Assembly: GCA_046744265.1 (NCBI GenBank)
Contig: JBKPAS010000116.1
Coordinates: 1-24,129, forward strand
Source: Actinomycetota bacterium
Lineage (GTDB): Bacteria > Actinomycetota > Acidimicrobiia > Acidimicrobiales > VFJN01
DNA: 24,129 nt
Direction of reading: 5' to 3'
Part shown: one piece after another, positions 14,341-18,089 of the stretch
Layout: each line of letters opens with the position of its first letter
Numbering within the stretch: position 1 is the first letter of the stretch
Notes under the pieces: generated by a model
Database searches by the model: none
What the model saw: only the letters and a program-made list of their open reading frames with translations
Told to the model about the DNA's origin: nothing
Position numbers and translations under genes: made by a program

Positions 14341-14367
14341 TCTCACGGTCGGCGCGCCTGCGACGTT
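14341..14367 (+). promoter_or_regulatory. Candidate autoregulatory ECF promoter
   Basis: TCTCACG (14341-14347), 16 nt, CGTT (14364-14367), 7 nt, GTG 14375. Confidence 0.4.
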
Positions 14368-14374
14368 GTCCGGG

Positions 14375-14845
14375 GTGGTGAAGCTCCCGCCATTCCAGGC
14401 TCTGCTCGACGAGCACGCCGCCGACGTGCACCGGTTCCTGGTTGCCGCGGTCGGGCCCCACGACGGGGCCGACTGCTTCCAGGAGACAGTCGTCTCGGCG
14501 CTGCGCGCCTACCCGAACCTGCGGAACGCCGACAACCTGCGGGGCTGGCTCTTCACGATCGCCCACCGCAAGGTCATCGACCTGGCCCGGCGCTCCGGCC
14601 GCCAGGCCGTGCCGGTGAGCGACCCGCCCGAGGTCGGTCACGTCGACCGCGACGTCACCGGCGACGACGAGCTGTGGGCCGCCGTACGCCGCCTGCCGCC
14701 CAAGCAGCGGTCGGCCGTCGTGCAGCGCTACCTGCTCGACCGCCCGTATGCCGAGGTCGCCGAGACGCTCGGGTGCAGCGAGGACGCCGCCCGCCAGAAC
14801 GTGCGGGCCGGCCTGCGTCGACTGCGAGAGGAGGTGCCGGCATGA
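14375..14845 (+). CDS. ECF sigma-70 factor (sigma2 + sigma4 only)
   Basis: DCFQETVVSALRAY, LRGWLFTIAHRKVIDLARR, LWAAVRRLPPKQRSAVVQRY, YAEVAETLGCSEDAARQNVRAGLRRLR. Start could be 14366, 14375 or 14378. Confidence 0.88.
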   Translation: MVKLPPFQALLDEHAADVHRFLVAAVGPHDGADCFQETVVSALRAYPNLRNADNLRGWLFTIAHRKVIDLARRSGRQAVPVSDPPEVGHVDRDVTGDDELWAAVRRLPPKQRSAVVQRYLLDRPYAEVAETLGCSEDAARQNVRAGLRRLREEVPA

Positions 14846-15591
14846 ACGAACCGCATGACGCCCACGGGGTGGACGAGCCCGACTCGCCGGGCGGCGCCGG
14901 CACCGAGGCCGGCAAGGACGCCGACGCCCTGCTCGCCGACCTGGGCCTCGCCCGGACCGACGGCATCGCCGGTTACGTCGTCGAGGGCCTGCGGCGGGGG
15001 CCGTCCGGCTCCGGCGACGCCGGGCGGGACGAGCTCGACGCGCTGATCGCCGCGGCCGCCGCCCGGGCCGATGCCGCCGATCTCGTGGACATCGCCTGGA
15101 CCGTGGCCGACACGCCGATCGGCCGCTTGACGCTCACGGCCACCGAGGTCGGGGTGCTGCGGATCTCGTTCGGCACCGAGGAGCACGTGCTCGACGAGCT
15201 CGCGGTCGAGGTGTCGCCCCGGGTGCTGCACCTGCCCTCGCGGCTCGACGACCTGCGCCGCCAGCTCGACGAGTACTTCGCCGGCCGGCGCCACCGGTTC
15301 GAGTTGCCGCTCGACCGGCGGCTGTCGCGGGGTTTCCGCGCCCGGGCGCTCGAGGCTCTTGCCGCCCACATCGGCTATGGCGAGACGGCCAGCTACAAGG
15401 ATGTCGCCACGCTGGTGGGCAACCCCAAGGCCACCCGGGCGGTCGGCACGGCCATGGCCACCAACCCGATCCCGATCGTCGTGCCCTGCCACCGGGTGCT
15501 GCGCTCGGGCGGCGCCCTCGGCAACTACGGCGGCGGCCCCGAGATCAAGGCCTGGTTGCTGCGCCACGAGGGCGCCCGCATCTTGCTCTGA
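14842..15591 (+). CDS. ogt: Methylated-DNA--protein-cysteine methyltransferase with an N-terminal extension
   Basis: DTPIGRL, QLDEYFAGRR..FELPLD, IGYGETASY, NPKATRAVGTAMATNPIPIVVPCHRV, YGGG.EIKAWLL.HEG; ATGA overlap with the ECF stop. Confidence 0.92.
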   Translation: MNEPHDAHGVDEPDSPGGAGTEAGKDADALLADLGLARTDGIAGYVVEGLRRGPSGSGDAGRDELDALIAAAAARADAADLVDIAWTVADTPIGRLTLTATEVGVLRISFGTEEHVLDELAVEVSPRVLHLPSRLDDLRRQLDEYFAGRRHRFELPLDRRLSRGFRARALEALAAHIGYGETASYKDVATLVGNPKATRAVGTAMATNPIPIVVPCHRVLRSGGALGNYGGGPEIKAWLLRHEGARILL

Positions 15592-15597
15592 GGGCCG

Positions 15598-15699
15598 CTA
15601 CCCGGCGAGGCCGAGCTCTCGCTCGGACTGCCTGAGCCGCCACTCGCGCACCACCGCCACGCCCACCCCGACAGCGACAACGATCATCAGTCGACGCAC
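15598..15699 (-). CDS. 33-aa small protein with an N-terminal hydrophobic helix
   Basis: MRRLMIVVAVGVGVAVVREWRLRQSERELGLAG; TAGCGT (15711-15706) lies 6 nt before the GTG (leaderless). Confidence 0.55.
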   Translation of the reverse strand: MRRLMIVVAVGVGVAVVREWRLRQSERELGLAG

Positions 15700-15725
15700 G
15701 AGGCCACGCTAGGCTCGAACGACTC

Positions 15726-15798
15726 GCGGGCGTAGTCCAACGGCAGAGACACGGGCCTCAAAATCCCGCCAGTGTGGGTTCGAATCCCACCGCCCGCA
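15726..15798 (+). tRNA. tRNA-Leu(CAA), short variable arm, CCA not encoded
   Basis: Acceptor stem GCGGGCG/CGCCCGC, D-loop AACGGCAG, anticodon stem CGGGC/TCCCG around CT-CAA-AA (anticodon 15759-15761), 5-nt variable region, T arm GTGGG-TTCGAAT-CCCAC, discriminator A. Confidence 0.92.
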
Positions 15799-15804
15799 CC
15801 TCGT

Positions 15805-15825
15805 GGTCAGTACTGGGTCAGTACT
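15805..15825. repeat. Tandem duplication GGTCAGTACT x2 (11-bp period)
   Basis: Copies at 15805-15814 and 15816-15825, between the tRNA 3' end and the stop of the converging ORF. Confidence 0.8.
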
Positions 15826-16174
15826 TGGGGCCGACGATGGCGTCCAGGCGCTCGACGGCCTTGCGGCGGGCAACAGAGATCGTGGTCGGGTTGCTCGGGC
15901 GGGCGTCGATGCCGAGCCGGGCGCACGCCTCGAGGTACAGCTCGCGGATGTCGGCGGAGACGTTCGTGAAGAGGTAGCGCACGTACTCGTACGTGCGCCC
16001 CCTGACGTGGACCCGGTTGATGCATCGGCAGCCGTCCGAGTGCACGAGGCCCCGCACCAGGAGATCGGGGTGGCGGTCGAGGGCGATCGTCCGCTGCCAG
16101 GGCGCGAGCACGATCGGGCGCTGGACTCGGCGGTCTCGGCCATGATGCCGGGGTAGGCGTCGCAGCAATCTCAT
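15818..16174 (-). CDS. Internally deleted LAGLIDADG-like protein of the actinobacterial tRNA-associated family (possibly a pseudogene)
   Basis: RPIVLAPWQ, LAGLIDADG-type helix LLVRGLVHSDG, YEYVRYLFTN.S.DIRELY, ISVARRKAV..LD..VGPKY. A family-like block DCCDAYPGIMAETAES survives out of frame at 16170-16123; the first motif (YLLGxYLGDG-type) is absent. Confidence 0.7.
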   Translation of the reverse strand: MRLLRRLPRHHGRDRRVQRPIVLAPWQRTIALDRHPDLLVRGLVHSDGCRCINRVHVRGRTYEYVRYLFTNVSADIRELYLEACARLGIDARPSNPTTISVARRKAVERLDAIVGPKY

Positions 16175-16180
16175 GTACCG

Positions 16181-16204
16181 AGGTTACACGAACTAGCGTT
16201 CGTG
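16181..16204 (-). promoter_or_regulatory. LexA (SOS/Cheo) box abutting the -10 of a leaderless promoter
   Basis: CACGAAC-TAGC-GTTCGTG (16187-16204) is a perfect 7-bp inverted repeat containing CGAAC-N4-GTTCG. TAACCT at 16186-16181 lies 6 nt before ATG 16174. Confidence 0.8.
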
Positions 16205-16214
16205 CACTGCGCGG

Positions 16215-18089
16215 TCAGCGGGACAAGGACGAGGCGAGGCGGGTGAGGAGGGGGGTGGCGAGAGCGTCTTCCAGGGGGAAGGGGAGCGCCAGGGACCAAT
16301 TGGGGCGTTCGATGGTCGTGCCCGGGAGGTTGGGCCGGTCGGGGACGGCGAGGCCGTCCTCGAGCGTGGCCGCCACCAGGGCCGACGGGCTGGCCGCCAG
16401 CCGGCGGTGGACGTCGACGATCACGTCCTCGACGGTCGAGTCGTCGGGCGTCCGGCCGGTGAGGTCGTGCAGGCGCTGGCGCAGGGCGTCCATCGCGGCG
16501 GGGTCCGGCTCGATGCCGGCCGCCCGCTGGTCGGCGTCGTCGGCGCCGGTCCACGCCCCGGCGATCGTCGGCAGGTCGTGGGTCGTCACGGCGGCCAGCG
16601 CCTGCCACGGGTACCGCTCGGGCGGCTCGGGCTCGAACCACGCCAGGCGGTAGGACAGAACGCCCGCCTCGGCCAGCGCCTCCCGGACCTGTGTCTCGAC
16701 GGTCCCGAGGTCCTCGCCCACGATCACGGCGCCGGCCCGCACGCTCTCGACCGCCAGCACCGCCAGCAACTCGTCGCCCCGGTAGCGGACGTACGCCCCG
16801 TCGGCCGGCCCCCCGCCCGGCGGCAACCAGAACAGGCGGAAGAGGCCCATCACGTGGTCGATCCGGACACCGCCGCCGGAGTTTGGGGAACGATCACCGG
16901 TCCCCCCACCGAGCGCCGCCCGCCACAGCGACGCCAGCGGCTCGTACGCCGCGGCCCGCAGCTTCCACGGCACGAACGGCGGCAGCCCCCAGTCCTGCCC
17001 GAACCGGTTGAAGGCGTCGGGCGGCGCCCCGACGCGCACGTCCGCGGCGAGCAGGTCCTGCATGATCCAGGCGTCGGCGCCGTCGGGGTCGACCCCGACC
17101 GCCAGGTCGGTGAGCAGCGGCAGCGCCTGGCCGCCCCGCCGGAACTGGTCGTCGAGCAGGAACTGCACCCACGCCCAGTACCGCACGCGCTCGGCCCGGG
17201 CGGCCGCGAACGACGCCACCGCCGCGGACGACGGGTGGCGGTGCTCGGCCGGCCACGTCCGCCACCCCGAGCCGTGGTGCTCGGCCAGCGCGCAGAACCG
17301 GGCGTAGACCTCGATCTCGTCGCCCTGGTCGGCCCGCCACCGCTCGAACCTCGTGTCCGCCCCGAACCGCACCCACAGCCGGTCGAGCGCCCGCCGCTTC
17401 AGGACCCACGCCCGGTCCCGGTCGATGACCCGCGACCCGTTCAGGCGCCGGGCCTCGGCGGCCAGCGACGACACGTCGGGGTCCTCCCCTGCACCGGGGA
17501 TGTCGTCGATGCACAGGTACAGCGGGTTCCGCCACCGCCGGCTCGACGGGTAGTAGGGACTCGGCTCGACGCGGTCCAGGGGCAGGGGGGCGTGCAGGGG
17601 GTTGAGCGCCACCATCCCGGCGCCGTGGTCGCGGGCCCACCCGGCCAACAGCGCCAGGTCGGCGGCGTCGCCGACGCCCCAGCTTCCCGTCGACCGGCAC
17701 GAGTGGAGCTGCACGGCCAGCACCCAGGTCCGCAGGTCAGGCGGTAGGTGGCAGCGGCCGGGCGTGACGATGAGCCGGGTGACCGGGCCGCCGTCCCGCG
17801 GCCGCAGGTCGTGGTAGCCGATCGGCAGGTCGGGCGGCAGGGCGGTCAGCCCGGCCAGGGCGGTGCCGTCCTCCAGGGTCAGGTCGCACGGGGCGAGCAG
17901 GGGCTCCGCGGCGCCGGCCCGCACGATCCACAGGGGCCGGTCCTCGGGCGGCCCGGCCTCCCACTCCTCCGGCCCCCCGGCCGCGCCCATGGCCGAGTGC
18001 AGCGCCGCGGCCGTCTCGGCGGACGTGGGGTGCCACGTGCCGTGGACATCGACGTATCCGTCGTCGAGGCCCCAGGGATCGGTCGCCAT
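16215..18089 (-). CDS. malQ: 4-alpha-glucanotransferase (GH77 amylomaltase)
   Basis: QLHS.RS..SWGVGDAADL, NPLHA, SPYYPSSRRWRNPLY, DLAVG, GAPPDAFNRFGQDWGLPP, RIDHVMGLFRLFW, GEDLGTV, TTHDLPT, NLPGT...RPNWS. Confidence 0.95.
   Translation of the reverse strand: MATDPWGLDDGYVDVHGTWHPTSAETAAALHSAMGAAGGPEEWEAGPPEDRPLWIVRAGAAEPLLAPCDLTLEDGTALAGLTALPPDLPIGYHDLRPRDGGPVTRLIVTPGRCHLPPDLRTWVLAVQLHSCRSTGSWGVGDAADLALLAGWARDHGAGMVALNPLHAPLPLDRVEPSPYYPSSRRWRNPLYLCIDDIPGAGEDPDVSSLAAEARRLNGSRVIDRDRAWVLKRRALDRLWVRFGADTRFERWRADQGDEIEVYARFCALAEHHGSGWRTWPAEHRHPSSAAVASFAAARAERVRYWAWVQFLLDDQFRRGGQALPLLTDLAVGVDPDGADAWIMQDLLAADVRVGAPPDAFNRFGQDWGLPPFVPWKLRAAAYEPLASLWRAALGGGTGDRSPNSGGGVRIDHVMGLFRLFWLPPGGGPADGAYVRYRGDELLAVLAVESVRAGAVIVGEDLGTVETQVREALAEAGVLSYRLAWFEPEPPERYPWQALAAVTTHDLPTIAGAWTGADDADQRAAGIEPDPAAMDALRQRLHDLTGRTPDDSTVEDVIVDVHRRLAASPSALVAATLEDGLAVPDRPNLPGTTIERPNWSLALPFPLEDALATPLLTRLASSLSR

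Follow-up and report, generated by a model that had tools for sequence, protein, structure and literature searches.

The 118-residue open reading frame (ORF) that lies beside a tRNA-Leu(CAA) gene in the DNA analyzed here is a truncated copy of a ~255-residue protein composed of a helix-turn-helix (HTH) domain and a two-motif LAGLIDADG core. The copy is probably a fossil, a reading we adopt because its relatives form a decay series that runs from intact genes through halves and stubs to absence. On balance we favor viewing the locus as a free-standing LAGLIDADG endonuclease gene in decay, a member of a family that would pass through a homing-type cycle. The DNA analyzed (the window) is a contig of 24,129 nt (C141) from a metagenome-assembled genome (G000; 1.11 Mb, 55% complete, 153 contigs). 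The features of the locus are as follows.

15726-15800, plus strand: type I tRNA-Leu(CAA) of 75 nt, which lacks a long variable arm and has A73 as its discriminator base (Rfam tRNA score 54.5 bits)
15818-16174, minus strand: 118-aa ORF composed of 17-18 frameshifted residues plus one LAGLIDADG half-domain (alignment, three-frame translation and model)
15821-16120, minus strand: C-terminal half-domain that was retained (ORF residues 19-118), consisting of one helix and an alpha-beta-beta-alpha-beta-beta-alpha unit
16031-16063, minus strand: LAGLIDADG-like motif 2, LLVRGLVHSDG, with acidic residue D47, the Asp that is invariant in the family alignment
16126-16170, minus strand: relic island DCCDAYPGIMAETAE, in another frame, with TGA directly before it
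16172-16174, minus strand: ATG start, the family's original start codon and predicted +1 of a leaderless mRNA
16181-16186, minus strand: -10 hexamer TAACCT (TANNNT), 2 nt past the box
16189-16202, no strand assigned: LexA (SOS) operator CGAACTAGCGTTCG, a perfect CGAAC-N4-GTTCG

Anatomy of the truncated gene and its promoter

The two frame-compensating deletions, and the shifted block that had been proposed to lie out of frame, are real. The block DCCDAYPGIMAETAE, read in the other frame, has 12 of its 15 residues in common with P0003, a full-length relative. Its edges are the deletion junctions, junction 1 at ~16170/16171 and junction 2 at ~16121-16126. Ahead of the island ~95 codons of the relatives are gone (the HTH, motif 1 and the first strands), whereas past it ~40 codons are missing before RPIVLAPWQ... 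resumes in the ATG frame; in nucleotides the missing segments are about 285 and about 120. Neither deletion is a multiple of three, and jointly they return the C-terminal half-domain to the ATG frame. The regions lost by the two deletions are the HTH, motif 1 and the central beta-sheet. A MAFFT alignment had paired RLPRHHGRDRRV in frame with CLFPQHGPGRKH, a pairing that we rejected in favor of the other-frame match.

What is left agrees with the predicted 118-aa protein having a single intact LLVRGLVHSDG motif. All of the residues that are invariant in the family alignment are present in the retained half. Full-length members of the family have two motifs and two half-domains, whereas the window copy, from which motif 1 and the N-terminal half have been deleted, has one motif per chain.

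The perfect LexA-type operator said to abut the -10 element of a leaderless gene is likewise present, and the layout is conserved in relatives. In a motif scan of the whole window CGAACTAGCGTTCG is the sole perfect CGAAC-N4-GTTCG. The assembly contains six such boxes, the window copy included, where by our own estimate base composition predicts about one. Two of the six, spaced 29 nt, are upstream of the organism's own lexA gene (G000:C91:1144-1979, L118), the product of which was confirmed to have LexA_DNA_bind and Peptidase_S24 domains. Autoregulation of lexA is the standard internal control for SOS box identity and, because the window motif is the one found upstream of lexA, we take CGAAC-N4-GTTCG to be the predicted SOS box of this organism. 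Note that a perfect SOS box also overlaps the start of a DUF222 (REP13E12-like) gene in this genome (G000:C12:574-1831, L119).

On the minus strand the order of elements is box, TG, TAACCT (16186-16181), CGGTAC and ATG (16174-16172), and thus the box ends 2 nt ahead of the -10 hexamer. The start is predicted to be leaderless because the A of the ATG is the seventh base past the -10 hexamer, the position expected for such a start. The window sequence begins ATGAG and its counterpart at locus L092 begins ATGAGG. The stop codon of the neighboring malQ gene is at 16215, 12 nt from the box, and a simple scan for sigma-70 promoters and terminators gave no result. The layout supports a leaderless promoter that LexA would occlude and control in vivo.

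The gene was expected to be free-standing and to converge on a tRNA-Leu gene, and this was borne out: the end of tRNA-Leu(CAA) is 17 nt from the stop codon of the ORF. On either side are ordinary host genes, namely malQ and a gene for an ogt-type methyltransferase (ending at 15591). These flanks are collinear with those of relatives, and the truncated gene is a single-gene cassette wedged between them. The G + C content is 0.665-0.70 over the tRNA and the remnant gene (15600-16200) versus 0.73-0.79 in the flanks, and the stretch is a low-G + C, foreign-looking islet.

Fold, distribution and promoters of the family

Searches of Pfam and NCBIfam with the window ORF gave no matches; none of the curated models PF14528, PF00961 and PF03161 recognized the ORF. 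A sequence search of the PDB also gave no match. The ORF nevertheless has many homologues by sequence search, and a search with a longer relative gave an unnamed family of >2,700 proteins with at least 597 species matches. Most members are 250-260 aa in length and have an N-terminal HTH_23 domain. Their database names are "hypothetical", "transcriptional regulator" or "HTH domain-containing", although some clusters in a protein atlas have been automatically named "LAGLIDADG family homing endonuclease". Full-length relatives score 17.7-18.6 bits against PF14528, under its 22.5-bit cut-off, and a minority of the atlas cluster members carry this domain. The family alignment contains two LAGLIDADG-like motifs, LLGxYLGDG and LxRGLxHSDGC, in which the Asp of GDG is >90% conserved and that of SDG is invariant.

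The AlphaFold model of the full-length relative P0113 (pLDDT 92.6) consists of the HTH followed by two alpha-beta-beta-alpha-beta-beta-alpha units. Foldseek searches with this model returned I-Tsp061I, I-AniI, I-DmoI and I-SceI at a probability of 1.00, and the top matches were all LAGLIDADG enzymes. The model of the window product (pLDDT 88) has a low-confidence or disordered leader (residues 1-19) followed by one unit. Its top 50 Foldseek matches were LAGLIDADG endonucleases only, including the homodimeric enzymes I-TnaI, I-Vdi141I and I-CvuI. These model-based searches confirmed that the window gene is LAGLIDADG-like by fold, as had been proposed from its motif. Some members (L113 and L114) lack the HTH; in these motif 1 begins ~60-100 nt past the tRNA and the open frame extends back over the tRNA.

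Full-length members share with I-DmoI, I-Tsp061I, I-AniI and I-SceI a pseudo-dimeric double fold with an acidic residue ending each LAGLIDADG helix. In contrast to the I-DmoI-type enzymes, which are found inside introns and inteins of archaea, organelles and phages, the family is free-standing in bacterial chromosomes. It also adds an N-terminal HTH, a tie to tRNA-Leu(CAA) and predicted damage-regulon promoters, its sequence similarity falls below the Pfam threshold (PF14528, 18.6 versus 22.5 bits) and, in the window copy, motif 1 has been lost. Free-standing LAGLIDADG genes of bacterial chromosomes have barely been studied, and we found no paper on this family, its tRNA-Leu(CAA) tie or its damage-regulon promoters. 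Searches of phage and plasmid collections found no relative, and matches in PHROGs were confined to the HTH.

In the window's taxonomic family, matches were found in 12 of 80 genomes. Six of these are intact, two are halves (G000, the window genome, and G016), two are ~40-aa stubs (G003 and G052), one is split (G065) and one is marginal (G095). Within the window genus, G003 keeps a promoterless 38-aa C-terminal stub, and in G001 and G002 nothing separates the tRNA from malQ. Among 151 Streptomyces species ~92 (61%) have an intact copy, ~17 have copies that are frameshifted, stopped or fragmentary (a tally that includes one fragment from G223) and 42 have none. Three Streptomyces species have two adjacent full-length copies beside the tRNA (L115 in G200, L116 in G159 and L117 in G174). 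These tandem copies belong to two subfamilies, 52-58% identical, and are in the same order in each species.

The tRNA linkage seen in the window extends across the family. Of 84 loci, 78 have a tRNA-Leu(CAA) gene ≤400 nt from the family gene. In 75 of these the family gene lies past the 3' end of the tRNA, in one orientation or the other: 69 have the tRNA upstream in the same direction, whereas six, like the window, have it downstream in a convergent arrangement. The linkage was repeated in all three metagenome loci.

Promoter conservation was strongest close to the window. In its taxonomic family a box with at most one mismatch is in the same position in 6/6 full-length and 2/2 half copies, and the layout is kept in all eight promoter-bearing copies. 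(One of the full-length comparisons, L004/L090, rests on the unpublished genome G017.) Beyond these, same-position boxes were found at L008, L018 and the metagenome locus L112. The consensus layout is box, 1-2 nt, TANNNT, 6-7 nt, ATG or GTG. It is kept in ten relatives; the one departure in spacing is in L089, in which 7 nt separate the box from TANNNT. The -10 hexamer of the window is identical in L087 (the same locus as L007), and TANNNT is in the same place in G016, L088-L092, L008 and L018.

Phylum-wide the picture was mixed. Of 80 loci, six have a perfect box and four a one-mismatch box at the gene start, and the 413 kb of flanking DNA contained no perfect box versus the six at gene starts. 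Eighteen other loci among the 80 have TGTC-N12-nAnnnT, mostly with an ATG 6-7 nt on; the background expectation for this element is 0.025 per locus. The consensus given for the PafBC regulator is tGTCgg(N10)tA(N3)T (PMC8635444), and the element of the 18 loci fits it. These PafBC-type loci include L010, L011, L013, L014, L021, L025, L029, L040, L041, L044, L046, L062 and L068 as well as others. In Actinomadura, Spirillospora and relatives TGTC(G/A)(G/T)(T/A)-N-nAnnnT, then 6-7 nt and ATG replaces the LexA box, and the Streptomyces and Kitasatospora copies also look leaderless. The original prediction that the family as a whole is SOS-regulated therefore stands, as a reading of promoter sequence, for the window lineage but not for the phylum, where the box is found in ~10 of the 80 loci. 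Control by DNA damage is likely for two predicted subsets of the family, the LexA-box and the PafBC-type genes.

There are precedents for such wiring. The REP13E12/DUF222 genes of mycobacteria are SOS-controlled mobile-element genes. Integron integrases are also SOS-controlled, with a LexA box on the promoter (PMC3108266). In these cases, as in the window, a DNA-processing gene that is selfish or accessory has a LexA box on its promoter. The window gene differs from the DUF222 and integrase genes in that it encodes another protein family and its box abuts the -10 element of a predicted leaderless start at a fixed spacing.

Homing gene or host gene

In the homing-type cycle that we favor, the ancestral gene would have encoded ~255 residues, an N-terminal HTH plus a single-chain core having two motifs, each with a metal-binding Asp, and would have been located immediately 3' of tRNA-Leu(CAA). 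Its transcription would have been leaderless, from a -10 element abutting a LexA operator, and LexA would have kept it off until cleaved in response to damage. As known homing endonucleases do, the intact enzyme would probably cut a long asymmetric target, here in the flank of tRNA-Leu(CAA) in genomes lacking the gene, whereupon recombinational repair would copy the gene in; once fixed, the gene would decay. In the window genome the two deletions stripped away the HTH, motif 1 and central beta-sheet while the promoter, operator and start codon survived. Damage could thus still induce a 118-aa product consisting of 17-18 nonsense residues and the C-terminal half-domain.

Nuclease activity and homing of the family are inferred from several properties. 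The conserved Asp residues, the single address occupied in either orientation, the stacked copies, the patchy distribution and the pseudogenes fit, although they do not prove, the cycle of invasion, fixation and decay that typifies homing genes. A similar arrangement is known from a phage. Phage T4 SegB is encoded by a free-standing GIY-YIG homing endonuclease gene in the phage tRNA cluster. The likeness is that of a stand-alone nuclease gene beside tRNA genes, with a patchy presence and a presumed spread by cutting of the empty allele. The differences are that the present family is LAGLIDADG, is found phylum-wide in cellular chromosomes, is associated with one tRNA (Leu-CAA) and has predicted LexA- or PafBC-type control. 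Against homing, the intact copies in 61% of the sampled Streptomyces species would also fit a useful host gene, and the phage and plasmid collections held no relative. If the family does home, it would be a phylum-wide selfish element on one essential tRNA gene, timed by the DNA damage switches of the host, and would be a new source of long-site nucleases having a built-in HTH.

In Streptomyces coelicolor a type I tRNA-Leu(CAA) has been documented and its leucylation demonstrated (PMC6614811). The same report describes type I tRNA-Leu in Streptomyces for CAA only and leaves as a puzzle its presence in some Streptomyces and its absence from others (PMC6614811). If the family homes, it would provide a testable cause for this patchiness. 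A more elaborate reading, which is speculative and less likely than not, is that the window copy is the fossil of a damage-triggered homing system specific for tRNA-Leu(CAA), in which co-conversion would drag the tRNA along and would drive both the turnover of type I and type II tRNA-Leu(CAA) genes, for which there is otherwise no explanation, and the unusually fast divergence of this tRNA in Actinomycetota. Intact enzymes would be switched on by LexA or PafBC upon damage or the arrival of single-stranded DNA and would cut empty tRNA-Leu(CAA) alleles, and co-conversion during repair would carry the neighboring tRNA along. In one form of this reading the half-domain remaining in the window may still act as an SOS-induced homodimer.

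The tRNAs adjoining family genes are of both lengths, 58 short and 35 long. At the same locus within the window genus the tRNA is type I where there is a remnant (G000 and G003) and type II where there is none (G001 and G002). A strict cassette, in which type I tRNA and gene would always move together, was made less likely by the tally in the window's taxonomic family: type I-like tRNA-Leu(CAA) genes (≥85% identity) are present in at least 15 genomes, and a gene or remnant is found in four of these.

Several other observations concern these tRNAs. At the ogt/tRNA/malQ locus of this one genus the tRNA is an 85-nt type II species in L103 (G001) and L102 (G002) and an unrelated-looking 75-nt type I species in the window and L104 (G003). 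The acceptor stems of the two are GCCCGGA and GCGGGCG, respectively. Given this mismatch in acceptor stem and type at a single locus, an essential tRNA has therefore been swapped in place. The window genome has two type I leucine tRNAs (75 nt, A73, no long variable arm), with anticodons CAA and TAG, the second at G000:C7:4969-5043 (L120). In the window tRNA a C31-U39 mismatch closes the anticodon stem, and the 3-bp D stem covaries among relatives (GTC/GAC versus GCC/GGC). In Streptomyces (G096-G247) the gene-adjacent tRNA-Leu(CAA) is 75-100% identical between species, an unusually fast divergence for a tRNA gene; a tRNA BLAST search (E ≤ 1e-5) gave matches in only 44 of the 151 Streptomyces genomes. 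One irrelevant tRNA match came from G048.

A different explanation of the family is that it is a domesticated host factor, a DNA-binding protein or nuclease that would act at or regulate the tRNA-Leu(CAA) locus. It would be damage-induced, vertically inherited and lost where dispensable, and the window copy would simply be dead. This is a serious rival to homing, although we consider it less likely. It accommodates the frequent annotation of members as transcriptional regulators, the HTH that they carry, the intact copies at the same locus in ~61% of the sampled Streptomyces species and the phage and plasmid collections in which nothing was found, as well as the apparent wiring of the genes to two host damage regulons, LexA and a PafBC-like system. 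However, past the 3' end of the tRNA the genes are found in both orientations and at varying distances, a pattern suggestive of repeated insertion, and divergent copies (52-58% identical) are found in tandem beside one tRNA. Further points against domestication are the very patchy distribution, the frequent pseudogenes and the low G + C content of the islet. Moreover, the family has conserved its two catalytic Asp residues, which the domesticated protein WhiA has not. WhiA resembles the family in combining a LAGLIDADG scaffold with an HTH in Actinomycetota, but its HTH is C-terminal, its catalytic acidic residues have been lost and it is universally conserved. In contrast, the family has an N-terminal HTH, has kept both Asp residues, is patchy (12/80 genomes) and is often pseudogenised, and thus lacks the marks of a WhiA-like domesticated regulator.

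Decay of the window copy

Whatever the nature of the family, the 118-aa product of the window copy is most likely functionless. The G016 copy is a parallel half copy, although the comparison rests on an unpublished genome. In G016 the leaderless ATG and the conserved half are in different frames, and conserved positions have been changed (Y204C and V244T). We rejected the notion that the window and G016 share one truncated allele, which would have given meaning to the omega of 0.27, since the junctions differ on both sides and the 5' deletion of G016 is an in-frame ATG-to-ATG join. A shared allele is also disfavored by the gene tree, in which G016 is in a well-supported clade with fuller copies and the window copy is outside.

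Several findings argue against the fossil reading. The retained half keeps all of the invariant residues, and the terminal branch of the window copy in the gene tree (0.22, equal to the tree median) gives no clear sign of acceleration. The operator and -10 element are still perfect, and the frame has been returned to the original start codon, although this would happen by chance about one time in three. Finally, exactly one complete half-domain was kept, and the G016 lineage independently kept the same half. The omega values calculated for the retained half against intact and truncated relatives are 0.22-0.27, but with dS saturated at ~1 and the truncation not shared by any close relative, pairwise omega says nothing about selection after the truncation. 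A metagenome scan gave only three relatives, none of them closer to the window copy.

In a rival reading the 118-aa product would be a working SOS-induced single-motif protein, an I-CreI-like homodimer acting as a nuclease or DNA binder on a palindromic site. A monomeric enzyme would thereby have reverted, in nature, to a homodimer. In favor of this, the G016 lineage independently kept the same half, the promoter, operator and original start are intact, the frame is restored, the complete half-domain has its catalytic Asp, and homodimeric enzymes are among its structural neighbors: like the window product, I-CreI, I-CvuI, I-TnaI and I-Vdi141I have one motif and one half-domain. However, the I-CreI-type enzymes are products of whole genes of ~150-170 aa that evolved as homodimers, whereas the window product is a deletion derivative, the first 17-18 residues of which are frameshifted relic sequence. 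The original asymmetric target would be unreadable to a protein that has lost its HTH and one-half of the surface contacting DNA. Chance open ORFs are common at ~70% G + C (there are many in the ORF list of the window), and there is no relative with the same truncation to show constraint. The out-of-frame, altered copy of G016 and the sister species that have only a stub or nothing also speak against function. Hence, the original suggestion that the mini-protein still functions as a homodimer is not supported by the decay series, and we consider it unlikely.

The fossil reading also offers a plausible neutral reason for which parts persist. The surviving ends of the gene adjoin essential neighbors, the promoter next to malQ and the 3' end next to the tRNA, and it is the middle that was deleted; the ends would outlast the middle because deletions extending into malQ or the tRNA would not be tolerated. 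The window copy is of interest chiefly because it captures a dated stage in the death of such genes.

It is scarcely credible that the gene is intact and that both deletions arose in sequencing or assembly, even for a fragmented 153-contig, 55% complete genome. The missing ~285 and ~120 nt are far beyond homopolymer errors, collinearity with relatives extends over the flanks, and comparable decayed copies are present in the independent assemblies G016, G003, G052 and G065 and in ~17 Streptomyces genomes.

Further along the contig an ECF-type sigma factor gene (14366-14845) is directly followed by the ogt-type methyltransferase gene (window positions 14366-15591 for the pair). The longest ogt ORF shares ~170 nt with the sigma factor gene. 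Translation of ogt probably begins near 14842 instead, in which case the methyltransferase has an N-terminal extension of ~85 aa (no Pfam match).
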